Shown here: positions 1,924 through 32,696 of the stretch, piece after piece | Position numbering within the stretch: position 1 is the stretch's first letter | Layout: every line of letters starts with the position of its first letter | Origin: Escherichia phage dhaeg | Sequence record: MN850609.1 | Length of the DNA: 64,000 bases | Reading direction: 5' to 3' (one strand) | Position numbers and translations under genes: made by a program | The notes under the pieces: generated by a model | Database searches by the model: none | The model's input: the letters and a program-made list of their open reading frames with translations, nothing else | Told to the model about the DNA's origin: nothing

Positions 1924-2285
1924 ACTACATCAACTTCGAACGTAAATATGTTTCTAACGGTATCGCTGGTTCTTCTGAAGTTATTTGCCTGTGGAAACAC
2001 AACAACGGCACAGTGTGCGAAATCGAACAGTGCATGACTCCTAACTACGTTTATATGCGCTTTGAAAATGGTATCACGGTTTCAATCACTATGGAAGGTT
2101 CTACTTTTAAAATCGCTTTAGACGATGATTTCCGTCAACGTGATTTAGGTACCCATCCTTGCTGGAACGGCGCTAATCGTAAGCTTCTGGTTAAAACTTG
2201 GATTCGTCATATCCTGAGCAACCGTGCTAAACCTGAACACCTGGAAGCAATCTTTGATGTAGTTCTGAATGAATTTGATATCTAA
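1920..2285 (+). CDS. hypothetical early protein (121 aa), distant paralogue of the 1477 ORF
   Basis: Same leader/RBS as the 1477 ORF; CMTP motif at residues 38-41 versus 39-42. Confidence 0.6.
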   Translation: MNYINFERKYVSNGIAGSSEVICLWKHNNGTVCEIEQCMTPNYVYMRFENGITVSITMEGSTFKIALDDDFRQRDLGTHPCWNGANRKLLVKTWIRHILSNRAKPEHLEAIFDVVLNEFDI

Positions 2286-2295
2286 TCTTAAAAAT

Positions 2296-2311
2296 GGAGG
2301 CTTCGGCCTCC
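2296..2311 (+). terminator. hairpin ggaggc-ttcg-gcctcc after the 1920 ORF stop
   Basis: 6-bp GC stem with tetraloop 10 nt past the stop codon; short T tract only. Confidence 0.35.
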
Positions 2312-2326
2312 TTTGAGGAAAATATT

Positions 2327-2614
2327 ATGTTTATGACCACTTATTTCGATACTCGTAAAAATTTCTGTGAAGTTGTTTTCTCTAAGGCAGGTAAAGATGT
2401 TCCTGCTGACAAACAGCCTACTCGTGAATCCATTAAGGCCTATGCTGATGTGGTTTGTCCAGTAGAATTCCGTACAGTCAATGGTCGTGACACCCTAGCA
2501 ATCACTAAGCTCAGCCATGATATTAACATCGACCCTAGCGCTGCCCGCGAAGTCAATACTTCTGACATCTACGGTGGTAATGTTAAATCACATGGATTTC
2601 AGATGAGGTTCTAA
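2327..2614 (+). CDS. hypothetical protein (about 95 aa)
   Basis: Internal ATG 11 codons into the listed ORF, preceded by gaggaaaat SD; the listed upstream ATG lies in the hairpin and has no SD. Confidence 0.5.
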   Translation: MFMTTYFDTRKNFCEVVFSKAGKDVPADKQPTRESIKAYADVVCPVEFRTVNGRDTLAITKLSHDINIDPSAAREVNTSDIYGGNVKSHGFQMRF

Positions 2615-2808
2615 TGCAACTATTCTTATCACAAACCGTCCAGTTAAAAGGTGTAGGTATTCCTGGAATGATTTCTAAGGTCTTGCCTGGTTTTAAATTA
2701 GGTAATGCTACTATTAAAGAAGCCTACACCGTCCTGTGGGTCGATGGAACTGAAGACGTTCGTATGGGTTCTGAATTGTCTGTAATCAAATGTTTGAAGC
2801 GAGGATAA
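2614..2808 (+). CDS. hypothetical protein (64 aa)
   Basis: ORF with GAGG SD; start overlaps the upstream stop (TAATG). Confidence 0.5.
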   Translation: MQLFLSQTVQLKGVGIPGMISKVLPGFKLGNATIKEAYTVLWVDGTEDVRMGSELSVIKCLKRG

Positions 2809-2809
2809 T

Positions 2810-3025
2810 ATGGTTAAGAAACTGATTCAGAAATTGTTAGGTACGGAAATGGTTGAAGTGACTTATCGTGTGACTGATGTTTCTCCTCATACGGCAGACC
2901 ATTTAGAACCTTATATCATGACAATTAAAATGCCTAAACATGACGGTGGCTTATCCATTGAAGACCGACTACCTGGTTATGGTCATTGGGCTGATGTGGA
3001 GATTATCAGTGTCAAAGATATTTAA
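2810..3025 (+). CDS. small protein, tandem paralogue A (71 aa)
   Basis: Shares the frame KLxQKLxGxEMVEVTYRVxDxSP...IISVKD with the next ORF; gaggataat SD. Confidence 0.55.
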   Translation: MVKKLIQKLLGTEMVEVTYRVTDVSPHTADHLEPYIMTIKMPKHDGGLSIEDRLPGYGHWADVEIISVKDI

Positions 3026-3034
3026 GGAACCTTC

Positions 3035-3247
3035 ATGATTAATAAATTATTTAAAAAGCTGTTTGGTTTGGAAATGGTTGAAGTGACTTATCGTGTTATT
3101 GATTTATCACCGCCATATGCTTGCGATGAAGATGCTATTAAAACTGTTGTTATGCGAAAAACATATCGCGGGCGGTCAATTAAAGAAAGATTACCGGACC
3201 ATGGCATGTGGTATGCAACCAAGATTATAAGTGTCAAAGATGTCTGA
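3035..3247 (+). CDS. small protein, tandem paralogue B (70 aa)
   Basis: Paralogue of 2810..3025 with conserved N- and C-terminal segments. Confidence 0.55.
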   Translation: MINKLFKKLFGLEMVEVTYRVIDLSPPYACDEDAIKTVVMRKTYRGRSIKERLPDHGMWYATKIISVKDV

Positions 3248-3698
3248 GTTAGAGATAAGAAGTAACTTTCCGTGGCCATCATGCGCATTAAGTAACTTTG
3301 CTAAATGGCCTTTCGTTATGGATGGTATCCAATTCGGTGGGCTCGAAGGATTCCTCCAAGGATGTAAGGTGAAAAATGTTGAACAGCAAAGACGTATATT
3401 TAGGATGTCCGGGTTGGACGCGCAAAAAGCTGGACGAGCTTATGCTAGAGCTCAGGACCGTGGCACGTTGTTCTGGCTTGGAACCCCGTTTTCAAGATAT
3501 TCCGAAGCATGGAAAGAGCTTTACGAAAGTGCGTATTTTGAAGCAGCGCTCCAGAACAAAGGATTTCGCGATGCGTTACAAGCCACTAAAGGTAAGGTTT
3601 TAAAGCATTCAATGGCAAGCCACCTAAAAGAATGTGATACAATACTAACTGAAAAAGAGTTTATCGACATCCTAAACAAATTGAGAGATTTATTATGA
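3240..3698 (+). CDS. NADAR/YbiA-like (DUF1768-type) domain protein
   Basis: LSNFAKWPFVMDGIQF...EGFLQ and W-x3-YESAYFEAALQNKGFRDALQATKGKVLKHS resemble the remembered E. coli YbiA/NADAR core (FSNFAAWPIKVDGKTW...SEHYFQ); start overlaps the upstream stop. Confidence 0.55.
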   Translation: MSELEIRSNFPWPSCALSNFAKWPFVMDGIQFGGLEGFLQGCKVKNVEQQRRIFRMSGLDAQKAGRAYARAQDRGTLFWLGTPFSRYSEAWKELYESAYFEAALQNKGFRDALQATKGKVLKHSMASHLKECDTILTEKEFIDILNKLRDLL

Positions 3699-4333
3699 AA
3701 CCAGTTATCTTAACAGATATCGATGGAGTATGTTTAAGTTGGCAGTCCGGCTTGCCTTATTTCGCACAGAAATATAATTTGCCTTTAGAACATATTTTGA
3801 ATATGATTCAGGACGAACGTTTCTTATCTCCAGGCGAACTGTTTAATTGTGACGACGAATTAGGCGCACGTTTAATCGAGAAGTATAACCAGTCAGATTT
3901 TATTCGTTATCTGTCCCCTTACATGGACGCATTAAAACACATCAACAAGCTCAAAAAAGACTTCGATTTTGTAGCCGTGACTGCGCTAGGCGACTCAATT
4001 GATGCCCTGCTGAATAGACAATTCAATTTGAATGCTTTGTTCCCTGGCGCATTCAAGGAGATTCTGATGTGTGGTCATTCAGAATCAAAAGAAGACCTGT
4101 TCATAAGAGCTAAAAATACGTACGGCAAACGTATTAAGTTTTATGTCGATGATTTGGCTCACCACTGTGATGCTGCATCTAATATTCTCATGGATATCCA
4201 AGTTTATTGGTTAGCCCGTGGTGAACGCGACTTTAAACCTAATTTAGCCGTAAAGGTTAATTCATGGGACGATATCGCAGCTATCGAATCCCTTCGTAAT
4301 AATGCAGCAGTTGAATGGATTGCTCGAGGTTAA
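3695..4333 (+). CDS. HAD-superfamily hydrolase (putative phosphatase/nucleotidase)
   Basis: N-terminal ILTDIDGV (HAD motif I DxDG[TV]) and C-terminal YVDDLAHH acidic motif; ATGA overlap with the NADAR-like gene. Confidence 0.5.
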   Translation: MKPVILTDIDGVCLSWQSGLPYFAQKYNLPLEHILNMIQDERFLSPGELFNCDDELGARLIEKYNQSDFIRYLSPYMDALKHINKLKKDFDFVAVTALGDSIDALLNRQFNLNALFPGAFKEILMCGHSESKEDLFIRAKNTYGKRIKFYVDDLAHHCDAASNILMDIQVYWLARGERDFKPNLAVKVNSWDDIAAIESLRNNAAVEWIARG

Positions 4334-4334
4334 T

Positions 4335-4607
4335 ATGTTTGTTGTTCATACAATTTCGGACCATGGCCCTACCACTACAATGGATTATGGTCACGTCAAT
4401 CAGTTCTTTCGTCATCAACCTTTATTTAGGATTGCCAAAGAAAATCCTTTATTTAAAGAATGTGTGGAGCAAGGGTTTATTTACATCAGCAAATACGATG
4501 TAAATATGTTTTCCACAGGCAATAATAGAATGATTACCTACAATAAACGCCTTGACTTGCTGTTAGAAGAAGTGGCGTATAATAGAAATCAATCCGGAAG
4601 AAGGTAA
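4335..4607 (+). CDS. hypothetical protein (about 90 aa)
   Basis: Internal ATG 11 codons into the listed ORF, immediately after the upstream TAA. Confidence 0.45.
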   Translation: MFVVHTISDHGPTTTMDYGHVNQFFRHQPLFRIAKENPLFKECVEQGFIYISKYDVNMFSTGNNRMITYNKRLDLLLEEVAYNRNQSGRR

Positions 4608-4610
4608 ATT

Positions 4611-6116
4611 ATGATTTTAGATATTTTGAACGAAATTGCTGCTATCGATTCTACTAAAGCTAAAGAAGCTATTATTGCTCGTGAAAAGGATAACGAGCTT
4701 CTGAAACGTGTTTATCATATGGCTTATACCCGTCGTCTGAACTACGGTATTAAAAAGTGGCCAGAACCTGGATTTACGTCTCAATCCTTTGGTATGATTA
4801 CACTTGAAGACCTTCTTGATTTCGCTGAGTTCACACTAGCAACCCGTAAGATTACAGGTAATGCTGCTATTGAAGAACTTGCTCAAATTATTGCTGATGC
4901 CAAGGGTCCTGACGCTGAGGTATTACGTCGCGTAATGATGCGTGACCTTGAATGTGGTGCATCGATTTCTATTGCCAACAAGGTTTGGAAAGGTTTAATC
5001 CCTGAACAACCTCAAATGTTGGCTAGTTCTTATGACGAAGCTCTAATTAAGAAAAATATTAAATGGCCAGCGTTCGCTCAATTAAAAGCTGACGGTGCTC
5101 GTTGTTTTGCTGAAGTTCGTAACGATGGGGTAACATTCCTTACTCGTGGTGGTAATGAATATCAAGGGCTTACTAAGCTTGCAGCCGAACTTATTAAAAT
5201 GACTGAAGAAGCTCGTCAGCGCCATCCTAATGGTGTTATGATTGACGGCGAATTAGTTTACCATACACCTAAAGTAGAACCTAAAGCATCTAATGATTTG
5301 TTTAGTATGTTTGATGAGGAACTTCCTGAATTAAGTAAGGCTAAGGAATTCCAAACCGTAGCTGATCGTTCTACGTCAAATGGCTTGGCTAATAAAGCCC
5401 TCCAAGGAACTATTACTCCGGCTGAAGCTGATGGTATGGTATTACAGGCATGGGACTTTGTTCCACTGGATGAAGTTTATTCTGAAGGCAAAATTAAAGG
5501 TCAAAAATACGATGTTCGTTTAGCGGCATTAGTACAAATGGCTGAAGGTTTTACACGTGTCGAGCCTATCGAAACGCAATGGGTTAATAATCTTGACGAA
5601 GCTAAAGTCGTTTATAAGAAATATGTCGACCAAGGTCTGGAAGGTATTATCCTTAAGAACATGGACTCCTACTGGGAAAACCGCCGTTCTAAGAATCTTA
5701 TCAAGTTCAAAGAAGTAATTGATATCGCTTTAGAAGTGGTGGGTTATTATGAACACTCGAAGGACCCTAACAAACTTGGTGGTGTCGAGCTAGTATCGCG
5801 GTGTCGTCGAATTACATCCGACTGTGGTTCAGGCTTTAAAGATACTACCCATAAGAAAGATAAATCAGGTAAAAAGGTATTGATTCCATTGGAAGACCGT
5901 CCTGATTTAGACCGTGAACTTCTTATGAAACAAGCTCGTGAAGGTAAGTTGATTGGACGTATTGCTGACTGTGAATGTAATGGTTGGGTTCATTCTAAAG
6001 GACGTACAGATACTGTAGGTATTTTCCTTCCAATTATTAAAGGTTGGCGTTTCGATAAAACAGAAGCTGATACATTTGAAGATGTATTTGGTGATTGGTC
6101 TCAAACTGGACTATAA
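4611..6116 (+). CDS. 30: ATP-dependent DNA ligase (gp30)
   Basis: 501 aa; adenylation motif I lysine in FAQLKADGARCF (KxDG); size and position as T4 gene 30. Confidence 0.9.
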   Translation: MILDILNEIAAIDSTKAKEAIIAREKDNELLKRVYHMAYTRRLNYGIKKWPEPGFTSQSFGMITLEDLLDFAEFTLATRKITGNAAIEELAQIIADAKGPDAEVLRRVMMRDLECGASISIANKVWKGLIPEQPQMLASSYDEALIKKNIKWPAFAQLKADGARCFAEVRNDGVTFLTRGGNEYQGLTKLAAELIKMTEEARQRHPNGVMIDGELVYHTPKVEPKASNDLFSMFDEELPELSKAKEFQTVADRSTSNGLANKALQGTITPAEADGMVLQAWDFVPLDEVYSEGKIKGQKYDVRLAALVQMAEGFTRVEPIETQWVNNLDEAKVVYKKYVDQGLEGIILKNMDSYWENRRSKNLIKFKEVIDIALEVVGYYEHSKDPNKLGGVELVSRCRRITSDCGSGFKDTTHKKDKSGKKVLIPLEDRPDLDRELLMKQAREGKLIGRIADCECNGWVHSKGRTDTVGIFLPIIKGWRFDKTEADTFEDVFGDWSQTGL

Positions 6117-6117
6117 T

Positions 6118-6288
6118 ATGAAAGCTTATTTAGAAACAATTGTTGTAACAAATACAAATACCACCGCGGCCTCTCAAATCATCCTAGAGTTTGAGGATGA
6201 AATAGCTTTTGCCGATTTTAAAGACGTGTTTGATGGCTATGAAAAAGGCCCGACATTCGAAGTATATCGTACGTTGCTACCACTTTAA
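6118..6288 (+). CDS. hypothetical small protein (56 aa)
   Basis: ATG 14 codons into the listed TTG-initiated ORF, directly after the ligase stop; followed by a terminator. Confidence 0.4.
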   Translation: MKAYLETIVVTNTNTTAASQIILEFEDEIAFADFKDVFDGYEKGPTFEVYRTLLPL

Positions 6289-6305
6289 GGCCTTCGGGCC
6301 TTTTA
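6287..6305 (+). terminator. rho-independent terminator (aaggcc-ttcg-ggcctt + ttttat)
   Basis: GC stem with tetraloop and a T tract directly after the 6118 ORF stop. Confidence 0.55.
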
Positions 6306-6338
6306 TGGCATAAATACGGTTATTAAAGAGGAATTATT

Positions 6339-8399
6339 ATGACCGAACAATTGAATGAGGTGTTTGAGTCCGAAGGCACCCTGCCTACTGTAAACTTAAA
6401 CCCAAAACTTAAAGTACCGCAGATTTGGAAGATTGGCGACGCCGAATCCCAATTAGTGGCCCGTATGGTATCTTATGCCTCTGAAGGCGATGCTATTAAA
6501 CAGGTTAAATTAGGTGATAAATACGCCCATGTTATCCTTATGAGCCTTTCAGCTAAAGGTTCTCCGGCCGAACTTAAAGGTGGCTTAGGCCCTACTCCTA
6601 TTGATGCTATTAATACCATTTTCGACGTAGTATTCGAACAAGTTAAAAAGCTTCGTATGGATGCTGTGATGTTCCGTTTTCCAACCAAGAAAATGAAAGG
6701 GCAAGGACCTATTGTCCAACGGATTATCCAACGTTTGGTAGCACAGAAAACCGGTGGACGTTTTAAAGTAGTTCCGGCTATGTACCAATTTACCGGTAAA
6801 CATACTTATATCCTAGTAGTTCGTAAACAAGCTGATATCGAAGATATCAAAGGTATGCCTGGAATTAATGCCGAATTGTATACTAAGGTAGATTCTGATG
6901 TTGGTGAAGTTTATATTTCTAAAAAAGAAGGCCTGCAGGTTACTAAAGAAACTGCTATTGCCGGCAGTATTGCTAAAGTTGAAGAACGTCGCACTGATAA
7001 AATGGTTATAACCAAGACTAAGATTTCTCGTCGCGCTATTGCAGCAAGCCAGTCTTTAGAATCCTATCGTAATGAAAGTGAACTGTTTAAGAAATATGAA
7101 GCCACTGCCGCTGATTTTAATAAACCGGCAACAGCTCCATTAATCCCTGATGCCCAAGAAATGGTTACTAATAACAATTCTCCTGCGGCTAAAAATAAGG
7201 TTGCTAATATAGTAGCTGAAGGCACTGCTGAAGAGTTGCATTACGATTATAAAATGTTTCCTCTTCACGGTATAGGTGAAATCCAAGAGAAAATTAAAGA
7301 GAGAATCCTTACGGCCATCAAAAACGAACCTTTGACATCTGTTAAAGCTCTAGAAAAATATGCCTCTGTTATTAATACCGTTTTCGAAGAATACAAAGGT
7401 GAATGGCTGGCTAAGCATAACAAAACTCGTAAAGGTCAGCCTGATGACGTCTGGAATGAATTAACCGAGTCCAAGTGGAAAGCAGCCAAGACCAAGTTCA
7501 TTAAAAAACGTGTGTATAGTTTTGCTGGTGTAGGTGGTGGTATTATGGTTGATATTACTTTAGGTCATAGTGCAGATAAATACACCCCTTCTCAAAAACG
7601 TGGTATTCGTGAATATTGTGGCTCCGGATATGGCGATATCAATAACCTTCTTTTAGGACGATATAATCCTCAGAACTATGAGGTTATGAGCGAAAAAGAT
7701 ATCGAATCTGCAGTTAATAATTTGGATTCTGCTTTTGAAAACGGTGATAGATTACCTGAAGGCATTACTGTTTATCGTGCACAGAGTATGACGTGGGCCA
7801 TATATAATGCTTTAGTCAAAAATAAAGTATTCTATTTTAGAAACTTTGTATCCACTTCACTGACTCCTATTATTTTCGGCCGTTTTGGTGTTACTCATGC
7901 GGGTGTGGGTCTTTTAGAGCCTGAAGTTAGAGCCGAACTTACCGTAGATAAAAATGATGAAGGTTATACTAAGGTCCAAGGTTCCGGCGACAAGTTGGTT
8001 AAAGTTGGTTGGGCTATTGATGGGGCTTCTAAGGTTAACGTAGTATTCCCTGGGCAACTTGGCATTGCTACTGAAGCTGAAATCATTCTCCCGCGTGGAC
8101 TAATGGTAAAAATTAATAAAATAACAGATGCATCCAATAATGACGGTATAATATCCAACAATACAAAACTCATTCAAGCTGAAGTTATGACAACAGATGA
8201 GCTTCAAGAGTCAGTGGTATATGATGGTGATGTACTAATGGAAACTGGTGAATTGGTTGTATACCAAGATGACTTCGATACTTCCGAAAGCCCTGTATCT
8301 TTTGATTCATTTGTTAAATCTACACGGTTTGACGTACTGCCTCTTTTGGCTTCATGCATAGACCTCTATGACATCCCAGAAAAATTCATCCAAGGGTAA
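6339..8399 (+). CDS. alt: Alt-type ADP-ribosyltransferase, paralogue 1 (packaged, injected)
   Basis: 686 aa (T4 Alt about 682); C-terminal R-S-ExE triad (TVYRAQ / FVSTSL / ATEAEIILPRG); N-terminal LNE motif consistent with gp21 processing; position between 54 and 30 as in T4. Confidence 0.85.
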   Translation: MTEQLNEVFESEGTLPTVNLNPKLKVPQIWKIGDAESQLVARMVSYASEGDAIKQVKLGDKYAHVILMSLSAKGSPAELKGGLGPTPIDAINTIFDVVFEQVKKLRMDAVMFRFPTKKMKGQGPIVQRIIQRLVAQKTGGRFKVVPAMYQFTGKHTYILVVRKQADIEDIKGMPGINAELYTKVDSDVGEVYISKKEGLQVTKETAIAGSIAKVEERRTDKMVITKTKISRRAIAASQSLESYRNESELFKKYEATAADFNKPATAPLIPDAQEMVTNNNSPAAKNKVANIVAEGTAEELHYDYKMFPLHGIGEIQEKIKERILTAIKNEPLTSVKALEKYASVINTVFEEYKGEWLAKHNKTRKGQPDDVWNELTESKWKAAKTKFIKKRVYSFAGVGGGIMVDITLGHSADKYTPSQKRGIREYCGSGYGDINNLLLGRYNPQNYEVMSEKDIESAVNNLDSAFENGDRLPEGITVYRAQSMTWAIYNALVKNKVFYFRNFVSTSLTPIIFGRFGVTHAGVGLLEPEVRAELTVDKNDEGYTKVQGSGDKLVKVGWAIDGASKVNVVFPGQLGIATEAEIILPRGLMVKINKITDASNNDGIISNNTKLIQAEVMTTDELQESVVYDGDVLMETGELVVYQDDFDTSESPVSFDSFVKSTRFDVLPLLASCIDLYDIPEKFIQG

Positions 8400-8402
8400 A
8401 TA

Positions 8403-10526
8403 ATGGAAAATTTAAACGAAGTTTTTGATAGTGATTCCGCTAAAAACTATCCAGTAACAAATCTTAAACCAGGCTCCGGTATCCCACAGATTTTCTCTAT
8501 TCAAGCACCAGGTAACGATAACCTGGTTGCTCGTATGGTATCTTATGCGTCTCAAGGAGACGCTATTAAAATGGTTAAGCCCGGCGACAAATACGTTCAT
8601 GTTATTTTAATGAGTTTGTCGAGCAAGGGTGCTCCAGCTGAACTAAAAGGTGGCCTTGGTTCCGACCCACTTGGTACATTGAATACTATTTTCGATACGA
8701 TATATGAACAAGTAAATAAACTTAAAATGGATGCGGTTTTGTTCCGTTTCCCTACCAAGAAAATGAAAGGTAAGGGCCCTACTGTTCAGCGTGTATTAGC
8801 TCGTTTGGCGATGGCACGTACCGGTGGTAAGTTTAAAGTTGTCGATAGCATGTTCCAGTTTAGTGGTAAACATACATACGTTCTTTTAGCACGTCGTGGC
8901 ACTAATATCGAAGATATCAAGGGTATGCCTGAAATTGATGCGGACCTTTATACCAAGGTTGAGTCTAAAGTCGGTGAAGTTTATGTTTCTAAGAAAACCG
9001 GCCAGGCCGTAAGTAAGGTCGAAGCCGTAGCAGCATCTATTGCACAGGTTGAAGAGAAACGTACCGATAAGGCTGTTATCTCTCGTACTAAAATTTCCCG
9101 TCGTATGGCTGCAGCAGCGCAGTATTCTACTGCCGAACCTGAAACTTTATCACCTAAAGAATTGCAGGTTTATAACGAGTTTGAAGCTTCCGTCCCTGTT
9201 CACTCGGCCGAAGGCCCTGAGAACGAAGGTATTGAACAAATTAGCCAGAACTTTAAAAAAGGTGCTATTACTAAAATGCGTCAGGCCTCTCAGTTTAAAT
9301 CTAAGAGTGAGGACCTTGCCAACTTTAGATACACCATTGCTCTCACACACGCTTTAATGACTGATAGTAAATTTAAACTAAATTATGCTAATAGAGATAA
9401 ACAAGGGTTTGAAATTTACTCTAATAATATGGCATTTTTTAATACGGAAGTCGATAGACTTTTAAGCGGCCTTTCTCAAATCAATACTACCAATAGTCTG
9501 GATATTATTAAGAGAATTGTTAATAACCTGAGTGCCCGTTTTCAGGGGTCTCCTTCAGAGAAAGCATCCCGAATTGCTTTCGCTATGGAAGCCGTTTATA
9601 AACTGATTAACGATTCTATTAGCGATGCATATGCTTATTCAGGCGAGCTCATTAAACCTAAGGGCTTGACCAAAGACGAAAGTAATGCCATTATTGAATA
9701 TTGTGCGGCTGAATATGCTCCTATGAACTTATTCCTTTTAGGTAAACCTGAATCCGAAAACAATACAACAGCTATTAAATTGATTAAGGATTTAGACTCA
9801 GCATTTACCAAGGGTATTAAACTTCCTAAGGGTACTATTTTGTATCGTGGTCAGGATTTACCATACAAAATTCTGCGCCATAATATTGATAACAAAACCT
9901 TTTACTTTAAGAACTTTGTATCCGCTTCATTAAAGCCTAATATCTTTGGTGAATTTGGTAAAAATTATATGGCCCTCGACAACCAAGCAGTTTTTGTTGG
10001 TGATGAAGGTTCTTTATCCTCCGCCGATGAGTTGTTTAAATTGGCCAGTGGTAGTTCATCTGACGTAGGTGAAGTTGATGATGAAGAGGTAGAATGGGAA
10101 GAAGACGAGTTTGGTAATCCAATTGCACCTGAAGGCCCTGCAGACAGGATTGCTGAAATTGGTATGGTTATTCGAGGTGCTGAAGCAGTTAAAGTTATCG
10201 CTCCTGGTGACCTTACAGAATATGCCGAAGAAGCGGAAATTATCCTTCCGCGCGGATTATTGTTGAAGGTTGATAAAGTAGCAGCTTTTGCTATGAATGA
10301 TAGGGTATCTCACAAATACCTTATGGAAGCTACAGTGACATCTCCTTCAGAACTCAGTGAGTCCGTTTACGATGGTGACCATCTGATGGAAACCGGCGAA
10401 GTTAAATTGATGAATGGGTTTAAAGAATTCCTAGTTTCAGAATCTGTTTCAGAAAGTAACGAGGCTATGGAAATCCTTGCTGCATCTTTGGACATCTCTT
10501 CTTTACCAAATAAATTCAAAATGTAG
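8403..10526 (+). CDS. Alt-type ADP-ribosyltransferase, paralogue 2
   Basis: 707 aa; first about 180 aa strongly similar to paralogue 1; own R-S-ExE triad (ILYRGQ / FVSASL / AEEAEIILPRG); divergent centre and an acidic insertion (DDEEVEWEEDEFG). Confidence 0.8.
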   Translation: MENLNEVFDSDSAKNYPVTNLKPGSGIPQIFSIQAPGNDNLVARMVSYASQGDAIKMVKPGDKYVHVILMSLSSKGAPAELKGGLGSDPLGTLNTIFDTIYEQVNKLKMDAVLFRFPTKKMKGKGPTVQRVLARLAMARTGGKFKVVDSMFQFSGKHTYVLLARRGTNIEDIKGMPEIDADLYTKVESKVGEVYVSKKTGQAVSKVEAVAASIAQVEEKRTDKAVISRTKISRRMAAAAQYSTAEPETLSPKELQVYNEFEASVPVHSAEGPENEGIEQISQNFKKGAITKMRQASQFKSKSEDLANFRYTIALTHALMTDSKFKLNYANRDKQGFEIYSNNMAFFNTEVDRLLSGLSQINTTNSLDIIKRIVNNLSARFQGSPSEKASRIAFAMEAVYKLINDSISDAYAYSGELIKPKGLTKDESNAIIEYCAAEYAPMNLFLLGKPESENNTTAIKLIKDLDSAFTKGIKLPKGTILYRGQDLPYKILRHNIDNKTFYFKNFVSASLKPNIFGEFGKNYMALDNQAVFVGDEGSLSSADELFKLASGSSSDVGEVDDEEVEWEEDEFGNPIAPEGPADRIAEIGMVIRGAEAVKVIAPGDLTEYAEEAEIILPRGLLLKVDKVAAFAMNDRVSHKYLMEATVTSPSELSESVYDGDHLMETGEVKLMNGFKEFLVSESVSESNEAMEILAASLDISSLPNKFKM

Positions 10527-10583: not shown

Positions 10584-10874
10584 ATGAAATCTGCATTCCG
10601 TTTTAATGGTCAAGAACTGGTAGTTGAAAACGTTATCCCTGCTTCTGAAGAGTTCGACAGTGCAGTAGGTAATGAATTACGTCGAGTTTTCGGCGAAGAC
10701 AAACAGTTCGACTTACGCCCGGTTGAAAATTTTTCACAACCTGAGCAAACCGAAAATATTTTTAATGGTGTAGTAACCGGTCAGCTTGAATCTGAAGCTC
10801 CTATTTCTATCACGGTCTTTGTTAAAAAGCAGCCATTAATGACCGCTGCAGGTTTTATCTCGTTCCGTAAATAA
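10584..10874 (+). CDS. hypothetical protein (96 aa) downstream of alt
   Basis: ORF with gaggag SD; followed by a bidirectional terminator. Confidence 0.5.
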   Translation: MKSAFRFNGQELVVENVIPASEEFDSAVGNELRRVFGEDKQFDLRPVENFSQPEQTENIFNGVVTGQLESEAPISITVFVKKQPLMTAAGFISFRK

Positions 10875-10880
10875 ACCCCT

Positions 10881-10906
10881 AAAGGAGAGCGTAAGCTCTC
10901 CTTTTT
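10881..10906. terminator. bidirectional terminator between the 10584 ORF and gene 54
   Basis: 10-bp stem aaaggagagc/gctctccttt, loop gtaa, T tract on the plus strand and A tract (T on minus) upstream. Confidence 0.7.
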
Positions 10907-26947: not shown

Positions 26948-28227
26948 TATTTTTCTAGTGGTGGAAGTTTAACACCGAGATAAGAACTCAACTGGCTTTG
27001 GTTAGCCATTTTGTCCATATCAGAACCATCAATAATGCGGGCTTCTTTATCGTCCTTAGCGACGGTATAAGGGTTTGCAGTCAATGCATAACGAGCAAGC
27101 AATGCTACTGTAGGTTGTAAGCTTTCTGGGTCAACAATAACCTTAAATTCACCTACTGAAGTATCACCTTCTTCATCAACCACATCCAAACCTTCCGTAT
27201 AAGGCGCATAATATAAAGATGCGACCGTCTGTCCTTCACCCATCTGAGCATTTACACCAACAATAACATAATCACATGGACTATTCATATCGGCATAAAG
27301 AGGTAGACCATTCTTTAATACACCATAAGCCAATTCATCTTGGTCTTCCTTTTTCTCAACCCAACCGGATGCAGCGAGAATAGCAGCACAACGAGAACTA
27401 GCTACGGCATAAGTCCCAGCGAAAGAAGTTTGACGTTGGACGGCAGAGTTCATCTCACACATGTAATAATATAATGTACGAGCACGGTCCTGGGCATTAT
27501 CATAACGTGGGTTAGTAAGGTCCAATACGCCCTTTTCAGAAACACCCTGGACTTTAAAACGAGAACTCACTGTAATTAATGACTGTAATACGTCCTTATT
27601 AATTTCTTCTGCCATTTGAATGCCTAGCAGATTTTCAATGAAATTAGGAGCATTAAACCCGTTTGATTCTAGGTCTTGGGCTAATTCGACTGTCAATGAA
27701 GTTTTCAGTTTACGTGATTTAACTTCAGATTGCCATTTGTCAATACGGAAGCCTGCTTCAGCAATTTCAGGATGGCCTTGTTCGAATTTAGAAGTAATAG
27801 CAGCATCTGATACCATACGAATATGCCCAGCGGCCACTGCTTCAGAAATAACTTCACCGAGGTCGGTTTCCGTGGTTCCGGCGAAAGGAGATGCTTCTAG
27901 AACTTTAAACACTACACTTTCAAACTGGAACATATCGCCGGCTGCATAAGCTGTAGACGAATCGGTAAATTCAGGAATATTTTCACGTTCCGACATACCA
28001 ATCTGGCCTGCAAATGTAGCGCCACCAAGATAAGTCATTTTGTCGTCAGGGTTAAGTACACGAACCCCGTACAGAGCAGCAACAGGTTGGCTTGTTTTTT
28101 GTTCAGCAACTAGGGCTTTAAAGATTCGTTTATTAGTTGCTTGGGTGTATGAAAGAAGAGCAGGACGGCCAACCGAGTTGGCAGCCGTCAATGTGGATTC
28201 TTTAATTAGGTCTATAATCTTAGACAT
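26947..28227 (-). CDS. capsid vertex protein gp24 paralogue (divergent second copy)
   Basis: 426 aa; colinear with the adjacent gp24 at roughly half identity by eye (SVGRPALL.. vs SLGRPNLV.., conserved LKTxLTVELAQDLESNGF, ANPYTVAKDDKEARIIDG); 1-nt TAATG overlap. Confidence 0.85.
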   Translation of the reverse strand: MSKIIDLIKESTLTAANSVGRPALLSYTQATNKRIFKALVAEQKTSQPVAALYGVRVLNPDDKMTYLGGATFAGQIGMSERENIPEFTDSSTAYAAGDMFQFESVVFKVLEASPFAGTTETDLGEVISEAVAAGHIRMVSDAAITSKFEQGHPEIAEAGFRIDKWQSEVKSRKLKTSLTVELAQDLESNGFNAPNFIENLLGIQMAEEINKDVLQSLITVSSRFKVQGVSEKGVLDLTNPRYDNAQDRARTLYYYMCEMNSAVQRQTSFAGTYAVASSRCAAILAASGWVEKKEDQDELAYGVLKNGLPLYADMNSPCDYVIVGVNAQMGEGQTVASLYYAPYTEGLDVVDEEGDTSVGEFKVIVDPESLQPTVALLARYALTANPYTVAKDDKEARIIDGSDMDKMANQSQLSSYLGVKLPPLEK

Positions 28228-29510
28228 TAATCAGCCTCGTAAATAATTGCTGGAAGTTTAACACCAAGCAGATAAGACATATTACTCTGACCAGCCATTA
28301 AATCCATATTGGTTGCATCGATAACACGAGCTTCTTTATCGTCTTTAGCTACGGTGTACGGGTTAGCGGACAGTGCATAACGAACCATCAGAGAAATAGA
28401 AGGCTGTAATGAATCCGGGTCGACAATAACCTTATAAGCACCAACGTGTTCTTGGTCGTCTAAATCCAGGCCTTCTGTATATGGGGCATAGAAAATAGAA
28501 CCGACAACTTCATTACCACCATAGTTCTCTTTAACACCTACGATAACATAATCCAATGGGCTGTTAACGTCACAGAACAGAGGTAATCCATTCAACAAAT
28601 AACCATAGGCCGTTTCTGGGAGCCAATTATTATCTTCAGGTCTATGTTTTAACCAGCCAGAACCTGCAAGCATTGCAGCCACACGACTTGAAGCCACAAC
28701 AAACGTACCCGAATAAGAAGTAGTTTTCTGGATTTCAGAATTCATCTCACAAACAATTTCATAAAGTTTACGTGCAGATTCTGGAGCACTATCATAAGTC
28801 AAATCGATGATGCCATTATCAGATACACCCGTAACTTTATAGCGTTTGGATACGGTTATTAGAGATTGCAGAACATCTTTATTAATTTCATCTGCCATTA
28901 CTGTAGCCAGGAGGTCTTCTAAGAATGCAGGGGCGTCGAAGCCATTTGATTCCATATCCTGTGCTAATTCTACGGTCAAAGCAGTCTTCAATTTACGGGT
29001 CTTAACAGGGGCATTCCATTTATTAACCTGGAATACAGCATCAGAGATTTCTACATCACTCTCTTCAAATTTAGTGGTATGGGCTGCATCAGGAACCAAA
29101 CGACACGTTAATGACACCAAACCTTCTTGAAGAGCATCGGCCAATTCTGTAGCGCTAGTGGATGCGAGTGGGCTTGCTTGAAGAGCCTTATAAACCACAT
29201 TCTGATACTTAAAGTAGTCACCCTTGGCAATCGCCTGGGCTTTATCTGTGAGTTCCGGGATAGTTTCACGGTCTTTAGAACCAACTTCACCACCATAAAC
29301 TGCACCGGTTTGGAAACTGAATTCATTATCAGGGGTAAGATATTTGACACCATACAACGCAGCGATAGGTTGGTTTGTACGTTGTTCAGCGATGATATCG
29401 CGATAAATTAGTTTAGTGGTAGCACGGGTCAAAGCAACAAGATTAGGGCGACCCAATGAGTTGCTGGTAGTAGTTGTTGACTCGCGCAGTAATTCGTTAA
29501 TCTTTGCCAT
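28227..29510 (-). CDS. 24: capsid vertex protein gp24
   Basis: 427 aa; MAKINELLRESTTT...SIFYAPYTEGLDLDD...LGVKLP closely matches remembered T4 gp24; LRE near the N-terminus consistent with gp21 processing. Confidence 0.92.
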   Translation of the reverse strand: MAKINELLRESTTTTSNSLGRPNLVALTRATTKLIYRDIIAEQRTNQPIAALYGVKYLTPDNEFSFQTGAVYGGEVGSKDRETIPELTDKAQAIAKGDYFKYQNVVYKALQASPLASTSATELADALQEGLVSLTCRLVPDAAHTTKFEESDVEISDAVFQVNKWNAPVKTRKLKTALTVELAQDMESNGFDAPAFLEDLLATVMADEINKDVLQSLITVSKRYKVTGVSDNGIIDLTYDSAPESARKLYEIVCEMNSEIQKTTSYSGTFVVASSRVAAMLAGSGWLKHRPEDNNWLPETAYGYLLNGLPLFCDVNSPLDYVIVGVKENYGGNEVVGSIFYAPYTEGLDLDDQEHVGAYKVIVDPDSLQPSISLMVRYALSANPYTVAKDDKEARVIDATNMDLMAGQSNMSYLLGVKLPAIIYEAD

Positions 29511-31214: not shown

Positions 31215-32030
31215 TTAAGAAATTCGAGATGCTGCGATTGCAGACAGGTCCGCGAAGGACAGGGTAGGCTTAGCGCCTTTTTCTTCAACTGCTTCCGAAA
31301 TATAATTCAGTGCTGCAGCATCGTCTTCAGTTTTATTTATAGCGGCTTCAGTGATTGGTTTTTCAACGTCGGTCTGACCCTTAACCATTTCAACGATAGC
31401 GCCAATTTTTTTACCAAATGCATCGGAATAATCCATGCCTTCTACCAGAGAACTAACTTTTTCTTTCTGAGATTCAGTCAGGTCTTTGGTTGCTTCCATA
31501 ACAGCTTGTTCACGCTGTACGTAATTAATATATGCGTCACGCTTGCCAACTTCTTCGAACAAACGAGCGGTTTCAGCTTTCTGTTCAGCCAATTCTTCTT
31601 CCATTTCAGCGACAACGTCTACTGCTTCTTCTGGAACAACCACGTTATGTTCAACAAACAGTTCTTTCATACCCATCAACATGGATTCGAACAGTTCGGC
31701 TTTAATACCTTTATCAACAGCCAGCTGGTTTTCAGCCATCCATTCTTTAGCGACGTGGTCAAGGAAACGACCGGCAGCTTCTTGGATTTTCTTATCAGCT
31801 TTTTCTTCAGCTTCTTCTTTATTTTTCTCAACTTCTTCTTCCGCTTTTTCAGCGATTTTAGCGATATGAGATTCAGCCAGTTTAACGGCGTGTTGCTTGA
31901 CGGTAGCTTCGAATACAGTGCCGAAAGTTTCTTTTGCTTCCGGAGAAATATTAACTGATTCGAAAATACTGTCAAGAGCAACGGAAGCATCAATATTCTG
32001 TGCTTCGGCGATCAGTTGTTCTTTAAGCAT
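31215..32030 (-). CDS. 22: prohead core scaffold protein gp22
   Basis: 271 aa; acidic, Lys/Glu-rich coiled-coil scaffold; between 21 and 23. Confidence 0.85.
   Translation of the reverse strand: MLKEQLIAEAQNIDASVALDSIFESVNISPEAKETFGTVFEATVKQHAVKLAESHIAKIAEKAEEEVEKNKEEAEEKADKKIQEAAGRFLDHVAKEWMAENQLAVDKGIKAELFESMLMGMKELFVEHNVVVPEEAVDVVAEMEEELAEQKAETARLFEEVGKRDAYINYVQREQAVMEATKDLTESQKEKVSSLVEGMDYSDAFGKKIGAIVEMVKGQTDVEKPITEAAINKTEDDAAALNYISEAVEEKGAKPTLSFADLSAIAASRIS
31334..31341 (-). promoter_or_regulatory. candidate late promoter TATAAATA for gene 23, inside the gene 22 coding region
   Basis: Reverse complement of tatttata about 140 nt upstream of the gene 23 ATG; T4 is remembered to have its gene 23 late promoter inside gene 22. 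Confidence 0.45.
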
Positions 32031-32057: not shown

Positions 32058-32065
32058 TATTTATA
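32058..32065 (-). promoter_or_regulatory. late promoter TATAAATA for gene 22, overlapping the gene 21 stop
   Basis: Reverse complement of tatttata about 28 nt upstream of the gene 22 ATG. Confidence 0.55.
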
Positions 32066-32696
32066 ACGCTTTTTTCATGGCCTCTGCGAGAGCCATAAAG
32101 GCGTCATCGGCACTGGTATCGGTATCTACCGTTTGTGATTCTGTAATTTGTTTAGGAGTTACATAAGCATCAGGAGCAGATGGACCCCATACTGCATCAA
32201 CACCGACGGTTAATTTATAACCTTCGTTTACACGCTTATATCCTTTATTGGTTTCAGTTAAAGAACCTAGACCACGAGAACTAACACCAGGCACCCAACC
32301 GGCTCTAATATTAGCAGCTAGTTTATCACCAGGACCATGGTCGCCTTCAATAATACGAGCACGTCCATAAACGTCATTACCTTTCCACCACATATCTTCA
32401 ATAATAATAGCGGCTTGCATAGGGTCGACGTTAGCACGAGGCGGATGATTTAATTCTCCTAAAGCTTGTTTAGTAGCAACCTGTTCTGCCATATAATCAG
32501 CAACAGCTTTTTCCAAAATAGGTTTTGGATAAAGGCGTTTATTACGGTTAACCACTTCGGCTTGCATGAATATGCCTTCTATATAAAGGCCCGGGGCAAG
32601 TCCAGAATCTTTTCCATCATGAGATTCCAACATCGGAACCCCATCGATAATTTCACCTGGTTGTCCCCAATGTTCGATGAGCAATTCAGGTTTCAT
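32061..32696 (-). CDS. 21: prohead protease gp21
   Basis: 211 aa (T4 gp21 about 212); position 68-21-22. Confidence 0.88.
   Translation of the reverse strand: MKPELLIEHWGQPGEIIDGVPMLESHDGKDSGLAPGLYIEGIFMQAEVVNRNKRLYPKPILEKAVADYMAEQVATKQALGELNHPPRANVDPMQAAIIIEDMWWKGNDVYGRARIIEGDHGPGDKLAANIRAGWVPGVSSRGLGSLTETNKGYKRVNEGYKLTVGVDAVWGPSAPDAYVTPKQITESQTVDTDTSADDAFMALAEAMKKAL

Follow-up and report, generated by a model that had tools for sequence, protein, structure and literature searches.

Do two genes of the Alt family that lie side by side in a T4-type phage encode one ADP-ribosyltransferase (ART) twice, or two enzymes with different substrates? The question is raised by a stretch of 64,000 nucleotides from Escherichia phage dhaeg (sequence record MN850609.1), in the following called the window; positions are counted from its first nucleotide, and features lie on the + strand unless the - strand is given. 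Here, altA (6339..8399) encodes a 686-aa type-A Alt ART with a precursor mass of 76.1 kDa and altB (8403..10526) a 707-aa type-B Alt ART with a precursor mass of 77.8 kDa; the gap from the altA stop codon to the altB start is 3 nt. Both genes were identified from open reading frames (ORFs), from Pfam and PHROG matches, and from the labels alta and altb which they already bear in the records of phages JS10 and IME08. Judging from per-domain comparisons, the two proteins share a related N-terminal domain and carry effector parts of two types, and type B stands as a conserved Alt type of its own, lost from T4.

Both proteins are built from an N-terminal Alt domain, a middle region, an ART domain, and a C-terminal tail. 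In AltA, residues 1-238 form the N-terminal domain (6339..7052) and residues 239-415 the type-A middle region (7053..7583). In AltB, the corresponding parts are residues 1-240 (8403..9122), for which a confident alpha/beta fold was predicted, and the type-B middle region of residues 241-420 (9123..9662), predicted to be helical. A BLASTP comparison of AltA with AltB gave 64% identity over residues 3-238 and 34% over the last ~270-285 residues, with no match between. Over its ~238 aa, the shared N-terminal domain was 65% identical in protein as well as in DNA sequence, the longest identical DNA run being 17 nt; a preliminary description of the locus had called ~180 N-terminal residues near-identical, which is overstated. 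It had also pointed to differing central regions, and these (about residues 239-415) are indeed unrelated, with 11-15% aligned identity and no BLASTP match. The ART domains are about 37-39% identical. As compared to the AltA middle region, identity was 64% in Alt copy 1 of T2, 34% in T4 Alt, and 11% in AltB; the AltB middle region resembles neither AltA nor T4 Alt and is 45-47% identical to that of the second Alt of T2 and of about 400 further records, mostly Tequatrovirus. N-domain identity to T4 Alt was 42-47% for the window proteins, and in 72 of 72 representative clusters the Alt N-terminal domain sits at residues 1-240. A conserved sequence KISRR(A/M)xAxxQ lies at its junction, at about residue 230-240.

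The 4.9-kb region was 99.8% identical in DNA sequence to Escherichia phage dhabil (Dhakavirus), 94.7% to JS10, and 90.3% to IME08, and the dhabil counterparts of altA and altB are dhabil_260 and dhabil_259. A per-domain identity matrix was calculated for eight proteins, namely dhabil A and B, T4 Alt, T2 copies 1 and 2, and MX01 copies 1 to 3. The N-domains grouped by genome: dhabil A and B shared 65% and T2 copies 1 and 2 shared 68% identity, as compared to 42-47% between genera. The N-domains of Aeromonas phage 31 were likewise 56% identical within the genome and 32-44% identical to others. The middle and ART regions, on the other hand, grouped by type across genera. Dhabil A grouped as type A with T2 copy 1 and MX01 copy 1 (middle 64-92%, ART 84-94% identity), and dhabil B grouped as type B with T2 copy 2 and MX01 copy 3 (middle 45-98%, ART 58-99%). 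T4 Alt forms a sub-type of its own with 34% (middle) and 64-65% (ART) identity to type A. Hence, the first Alt of T2 is much closer to AltA (middle 64%, ART 84%) than is T4 Alt (34% and 64%), and AltB as compared to T4 Alt showed no similarity in the middle region (13%) and 39% identity in the ART domain. The extra, middle copy of MX01 is a fourth type. Such a third tandem Alt gene lies between alta and altb in MX01, QL01, C6, AnYang, and fDHCT2; in MX01 (NC_031934, 3940-5985) it encodes 681 aa, with a B-like N-domain (91%), an A-like C-tail (69%), middle and ART regions of the fourth type (about 20% and 40%), a PF03496 match, and an intact R-S-ExE triad.

The same modular pattern was found within a single gene. 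T4 alt (NC_000866, 5455-7503) and T2 alt (2142-4235) encode proteins whose identity is 99% over the N-domain and 94% over the C-tail, as compared to 32% over the middle and 67% over the ART region. By this alignment, the difference between T4 and T2 Alt is an effector-cassette swap inside an otherwise near-identical gene, and the Alt type that has been characterised, that of T4, is not the common one. The middle region is hypervariable across the family.

T2 harbors two tandem full-length alt genes encoding 697 and 685 aa, the second of which (AYD82791) is labelled "alt.-1, hypothetical protein". T4 contains in its place alt.-1/alt.-2 (NC_000866, 5066-5451, - strand), which are 95-96% identical to the second Alt of T2 (4239-6296) over its residues 1-56 and 62-116, and only 56% identical to T4's own Alt. 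These values identify alt.-1/alt.-2 as a recently frameshifted and truncated type-B gene, and they rule out the note in the T4 record which describes alt.-1/alt.-2 as a duplication of T4 alt. A tblastn search with the AltB middle region matched 445 phage records, 43 of them with at least 95% identity (Dhakavirus); the remaining 402 showed less than 60% identity (about 44-48% among the matches listed) and belong mostly to Tequatrovirus, including T2, RB5, and RB33. The Alt N-domain was found 1,823 times across 1,201 phage records, with two copies in Tequatrovirus, two to three in Dhakavirus, and one in most other genera.

The catalytic equipment of the two proteins is complete. Both matched PF03496 ADPrib_exo_Tox, AltA with an E-value of 3.8e-32 (111.7 bits) and AltB with 5.9e-18 (65.3 bits) at a gathering cut-off of 23.4, and both matched PHROG 802 (Alt-like RNA polymerase ADP-ribosyltransferase) from end to end (AltA residues 1-685 of 686, E = 7e-258; AltB residues 1-707, E = 1.1e-250). 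The ART domain of AltA (7584..8210) contains R480 (7776-7778), S505-T-S507 (7851-7859), and E579-A-E581 (8073-8081); that of AltB (9663..10361) contains R482 (9846-9848), S507-A-S509 (9921-9929), and E610-A-E612 (10230-10238). Their aligned counterparts in T4 Alt (NP_049811, 682 aa, used for all T4 Alt residue numbers) are R478, S503-T-S505, and E574-M-E576. A set of 55 full-length family representatives was taken from an exhaustive HMMER search and aligned, and the R, S-x-S, and E-x-E columns (AltB R482, S507, E610, and E612) proved invariant in all 55. The preliminary description had taken both proteins for Alt-type ARTs with intact R-S-ExE triads; careful alignment to T4 Alt and to each other bears this out, with no catalytic residue lost in either protein. 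ARTs with an E-x-E motif modify arginine and those with Q-x-E asparagine; the E-x-E motif therefore predicts arginine specificity for AltA and AltB. A T4 Alt variant named "E577A" is catalytically dead (PMC11404850), and this residue is most likely the second glutamate of E574-M-E576, the numbering being one off.

The two ART domains differ around the active site. AltB contains an acidic loop insertion between S-x-S and E-x-E (residues 553-585, 10059..10157, SDVGEVDDEEVEWEEDEFGNPIAPEGPADRIAE) with 14 aspartate or glutamate residues out of 33; an acidic insertion in the second protein had been noticed before, and it could be located here. The segment from S-x-S to E-x-E comprises 55-100 residues across the 55 representatives with a median of 71, and AltB with 100 residues has the longest. 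It is also the most acidic of the 55, with 24 aspartate or glutamate residues and a net charge down to -13 per 30 residues; others reach no more than -8. The insertion follows S-x-S and the sequence ...LKPNIFG... and precedes the strand which leads into the ADP-ribosylating turn-turn (ARTT) loop and E-x-E. The type-B protein of T2 has a short ...STYANEDAE... stretch instead of the long insertion, which is therefore specific to Dhakavirus. The ARTT loop before E-x-E is aromatic in type B (TEYAEEAE in AltB, SGFPSEAE in T2, i.e. Y vs F), and the aromatic residue is absent from type A (GIATEAE) and T4 Alt (APSNEME). In C3-like and iota-like toxins, the ARTT position upstream of E-x-E contributes to substrate recognition.

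A single-sequence AlphaFold prediction of AltB was unusable (predicted local distance difference test, pLDDT, 34.7); a model based on a multiple sequence alignment was used instead and reached a pLDDT of 79.6 and a predicted template modelling score (pTM) of 0.79. In this model, residues 1-240 are confidently predicted as an alpha/beta N-domain, residues 250-412 make up a helical middle, residues 420-650 form the ART core, and the C-tail is ordered in part. The region of about residues 518-580, which holds the acidic insertion, has low pLDDT and probably forms a flexible loop. A PDB sequence search with AltA gave no match; thus, no Alt structure has been solved. The N-domain contains a conserved glycine-rich loop KGGLGxxP ahead of a helix of residues 89-107; at least 90% of sequences keep G86 and P89 of this loop. 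The model gives a weak lead to a GNAT-like fold of the N-domain, which is unconfirmed and which we do not claim: Pfam gave no GNAT match at E-values up to 1, and a profile of 21 N-domain sequences gave none against PDB sequences at E-values up to 10.

Both genes are under strong purifying selection. The ratio of nonsynonymous to synonymous substitution rates (dN/dS, Nei-Gojobori) as compared to JS10 and IME08 was 0.11 and 0.086 for altA and 0.039 and 0.049 for altB; it remained below 0.15 in each of three regions of both genes and was 0.01-0.06 in the altB ART region. Recent gene conversion between the N-domains of AltA and AltB could be ruled out: dS between the dhabil N-domains is saturated (1.7), at 65% DNA identity and with no identical run longer than 17 nt. 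Any homogenisation of the N-domains must therefore be old, and the data may fit either ancient gene conversion or independent duplication with cassette replacement. Recent horizontal transfer was likewise rejected as the source of the 84-94% ART identity between T2 copy 1 and Dhakavirus AltA; because dS is saturated here as well (2.45), this similarity reflects strong constraint and not recency. Furthermore, the altA ART region and tail (7584-8396) showed a dS of ~0.9 as compared to JS10 and IME08, the altA N-domain 0.17-0.33, and altB uniformly 0.1-0.35; on account of this dS, the 3' part of altA has a mosaic history unlike its surroundings.

T4 Alt is a prohead-core protein present in ~40 copies (PMC9026906) and is ejected with the DNA (PMC2988021). 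Virion mass spectrometry showed that gp21 cuts it at ITE-6 and LTE-619, removing 63 C-terminal residues (PMC5694885). Both sites have counterparts in the window proteins. The predicted N-terminal gp21 sites, L5-N-E7 in AltA (6351..6359) and L4-N-E6 in AltB (8412..8420), align with T4 ITE 4-6. The predicted C-terminal site of AltA, L622-Q-E624 (8202..8210), aligns with T4 LTE 617-619 and is followed by a propeptide of 62 aa (8211-8396); that of AltB, L651-S-E653 (10353..10361), aligns with T4 LTE-619 and is followed by a propeptide of 54 aa (10362-10523). The pattern [LIVM]-x-E fits at each of the two sites in 51 of the 55 representatives, and E653 of AltB is conserved in at least 90% of them. 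The reading of the LNE motif as a gp21 site, proposed at the outset, is consistent with these alignments, cleavage itself being a prediction. The processed forms would be AltA 8-624 with 68.3 kDa and an isoelectric point (pI) of 9.0, and AltB 7-653 with 71.1 kDa and a pI of 6.0. Their predicted ends are VFESEG... and ...TTDELQE for AltA and VFDSDS... and ...SPSELSE for AltB. The prohead core protease gp21, the predicted processor of both proteins, is encoded in the window at 32061..32696 on the - strand (PF03420 Peptidase_S77, E = 1.1e-103) and is annotated in dhabil. The scaffolding core protein gp22 (31215..32030, - strand; PF25623 T4_CASP, E = 2.4e-90) forms part of the T4 prohead core, which takes up Alt during assembly (PMC9026906).

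Upstream of altA, a terminator-like hairpin ggccttcgggcc followed by TTTT (6289..6304) was read by eye and is the same in JS10, IME08, T2, and T4; a simple terminator scan did not list it, and a conserved terminator upstream of alt has been noted (PMC1524935). Behind it lies the T4 late-promoter-like box CATAAATA (6309..6316), which has one mismatch and aligns with the perfect TATAAATA upstream of T4 and T2 alt; the C variant CATAAATA is common to three Dhakavirus genomes. Sigma-70-like matches upstream of altA occurred at chance level only. A Shine-Dalgarno-like AAGAGGA (6326..6332) precedes altA, its GAGG core being present in five of five aligned genomes. The terminator scan found an intrinsic-terminator-like hairpin with a T run (10881..10904), which marks the end of the alt block, gene 54 converging on it from the other side. 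The late-type box, the 3-nt gap, and the terminator-like hairpin after alt.-3 make late co-transcription of altA and altB plausible, and because of the 3-nt gap altB is probably coupled translationally to altA.

Taken together, we consider it probable that AltA and AltB are paralogous, catalytically competent, head-packaged, arginine-specific mono-ADP-ribosyltransferases of the T4 Alt family with different substrate sets. According to this reading, the genes would be transcribed late as one unit from the CATAAATA box behind the conserved hairpin, with altB translation probably coupled to that of altA. The 76- and 78-kDa precursors would enter the prohead core via the shared N-terminal region and/or the terminal propeptides, and gp21 would trim them after the N-terminal L-N-E and after L-Q-E624 or L-S-E653, yielding mature enzymes of ~68 and ~71 kDa. 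We infer that both are packaged, cleaved, and injected; ejected with the DNA, they would act right at the onset of infection by ADP-ribosylating arginine residues of host proteins. The shared N-domain would serve as a delivery module matched to the phage lineage, and the unrelated middles, the different ARTT loops, and the acidic loop of AltB suggest that AltA and AltB have different host targets.

Several observations weigh against this view. The exact TATAAATA was not found upstream of altA, the box CATAAATA being mismatched at its first position. L/I-x-E motifs are common, with 11 in AltA, 8 in AltB, and 8 in T4 Alt, and only two of the eight in T4 Alt were cut according to mass spectrometry; hence, the motif alone is no proof of cleavage. 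AltB contains a further gp21-type motif, I583-A-E585 (10149-10157), at the C-terminal end of its probably disordered acidic loop, and a cut there, if true, would sever S-x-S from E-x-E within the ART domain. The literature searched contained no evidence that either protein is present in a Dhakavirus virion, cleaved, or active. The effector cassette of T4 Alt differs from those of both AltA and AltB (middle 34% and 13%, ART 64% and 39%); the T4 Alt targets are therefore not simply transferable, and it is uncertain even for AltA whether Arg265 of the RNA polymerase (RNAP) alpha subunit is modified. Finally, T4 Alt modifies at least 27 host proteins (PMC8120803), so the targets of AltA and AltB could overlap heavily.

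Within the preferred reading, a more specific proposal can be entertained tentatively, namely that type-B Alt is a distinct injected effector with a target set of its own, perhaps defence or toxin proteins. The N-domain, possibly of GNAT-like fold, would then act as a genome-matched delivery module joined to swappable ART cassettes, and the Dhakavirus acidic loop near the active site may be a specificity or auto-regulatory element. If type B is such an effector, it would have been overlooked because the model phage T4 keeps only the decayed alt.-1/alt.-2.

A rather unlikely rival proposal regards the variable cassettes (types A and B, the T4 type, and that of the extra MX01 copy) as a set of weapons directed at defence or toxin proteins of the host, with AltB acting mainly in anti-defence and not in transcription take-over. 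T4 Alt does ADP-ribosylate R84 of the toxin MazF and thereby blocks it (PMC8120803). The number of alt copies turns over (one, two, or three, with decay in T4), the cassette swap between T4 and T2 left the N-domain and C-tail at 99% and 94% identity with the middle at 32% and the ART region at 67%, and the middle region varies strongly family-wide; in addition, the neighbouring gene alt.-3 can mutate to escape the CmdTAC defence system (PMC11618068). However, altB is very conserved in Dhakavirus (dN/dS 0.04-0.05) with no sign of ongoing positive selection. Furthermore, an anti-defence role would be compatible with the reading preferred here without excluding it.

It is clearly unlikely that the two genes provide mere redundancy, both enzymes mainly modifying RNAP alpha Arg265 and the second copy raising the injected dose or serving as a backup. 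Such a function would agree with the catalytic core and the arginine-type E-x-E motif common to both, with the action of both T4 Alt and ModA on Arg265 (PMC2988021), and with the fact that T4 does without type B. A pure dosage copy, however, would be expected to stay similar or to decay; instead, types A and B are distinct across genera, with unrelated middles and ART domains only 37-39% identical, and purifying selection acts strongly on each. Further differences lie in the ARTT loops and the acidic loop. That AltB is not injected at all and serves as a structural prohead-core component or acts late in the producing cell is highly improbable: Alt has been called an important T4 core protein apart from catalysis (PMC11404850) and predicted mature AltB is acidic (pI 6.0 vs 9.0 for AltA), but the N-domain and both cleavage motifs of T4 Alt, which is packaged, recur in AltB, and the invariant catalytic residues together with the ART dN/dS of 0.01-0.06 indicate selection for catalysis.

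AltA and AltB are the known alta/altb pair of the JS98-like (Dhakavirus) T4-type coliphages, known at the level of annotation. Duplication of alt has been recorded for JS98, Bp7, and Ac42 (PMC4177764), and alt paralogues in RB49 and 44RR as well as T4 alt.-1/alt.-2 have been recorded in print (PMC1524935); since the pair is annotated and mentioned in the literature, it counts as already known. A functional study of either Dhakavirus Alt protein was not found in the literature searched. The present analysis adds, from sequence comparison, that type B is separate, that both gp21 sites are kept, that delivery and effector modules evolve separately, and that the acidic loop of AltB is an outlier. 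The gene pair itself is ordinary for Dhakavirus and its interest lies in the context. The textbook picture of one injected Alt stems from T4, which is the exception in having recently lost the type-B enzyme; caution is therefore needed before targets of T4 Alt (RNAP alpha R265, MazF, EF-Tu) are assumed for other T-even phages. Type-B Alt is an uncharacterised candidate for an injected effector in hundreds of phages, some of which are considered for therapy.

The pair has the surroundings typical of T4 Alt family genes. The gene order in JS10 and IME08 is 30 - alt.1 - alta - altb - alt.-3 - 54 - 48, the alt genes of T4 and T2 occupy the same slot, and the window pair likewise lies between gene 30/alt.1 and alt.-3/gene 54. 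The upstream neighbour, which served only as a synteny marker, is an alt.1 homologue of 56 aa (6118..6288; PF24647 Phage_blade, E = 4.8e-22) found at the same position in JS10, T4, and T2; the ORF listed at 6076-6288 opens at an upstream TTG, and the start annotated in the relatives is the ATG at 6118. Downstream lies an alt.-3 homologue of 96 aa (10584..10874; DUF5498, PF17602, E = 3.6e-34), assigned also by synteny and forming the last gene of the rightward block. In T4, mutants of Alt.-3 with a C-terminal extension escape the CmdTAC ADP-ribosyltransferase defence system (PMC11618068). Antisense ORFs within altA and altB were all at most 105 aa long, and no Rfam family matched between window positions 5900 and 11000. 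Tandem paralogy of head proteins was seen again elsewhere: the dhabil record annotates two adjacent gp24-like head-vertex genes (141774-144337, corresponding to window positions ~26950-29510, - strand) and also two separate hoc-like outer-capsid genes.

We also sought cargo other than ART on the Alt N-domain. PF03496 was present in 59 of 70 proteins, and most of the rest were fragments. P0063 and P0064 showed degenerate ART-like motifs by eye. P0067, a metagenomic protein of 541 aa with the Alt N-domain at residues 3-162, was the only one without an ART recognisable by Pfam, PHROGs, or eye. A role of the N-domain as a general-purpose delivery domain was rejected, as no convincing case was found.

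Among known systems, the alta/altb genes of JS10, JS98, IME08, and dhabil are the same genes in the same order, and nothing material distinguishes them from the window pair. AltB has its type-B orthologue in the second Alt of T2, whose gene likewise follows alt; the T2 protein is 45-47% identical in the middle, 58% in the ART domain, and 60% in the C-tail, and both proteins end in KFKM. It differs in the N-domain, which is only 46% identical to that of AltB because N-domains follow the genome and not the type. T4 Alt, the only biochemically characterised member, likewise combines N-domain, helical middle, R-S-ExE ART domain, and C-tail in the same genomic slot; the upstream hairpin and the position of the late box are the same, both its gp21 sites are kept in AltA and AltB, and AltA can be aligned with it end to end at 49% identity. 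The differences are its effector cassette, which is unlike those of AltA and AltB, and the second gene, of which T4 has only a decayed remnant.

More distant relatives are the C3, VIP2, iota, and Vis-type toxins, which share PF03496. The segment from S-x-S to E-x-E comprises ~36-38 residues in C3, iota, and VIP2 as compared to 55-100 in Alt; furthermore, Alt has a phage-specific N-domain and propeptides cleaved by gp21, and is delivered via the phage head and not by a toxin translocon. The general concept for head-packaged ARTs has been set out before (PMC5512222; PMC9503650), and Alt was expressly set apart from genuine polyvalent proteins (PMC5512222). In comparison with polymorphic toxins and polyvalent or MuF-fused effectors, Alt has no MuF domain and its cargo is almost always an ART; the likeness is by analogy only and consists in a conserved N-terminal module joined to exchangeable C-terminal effectors.

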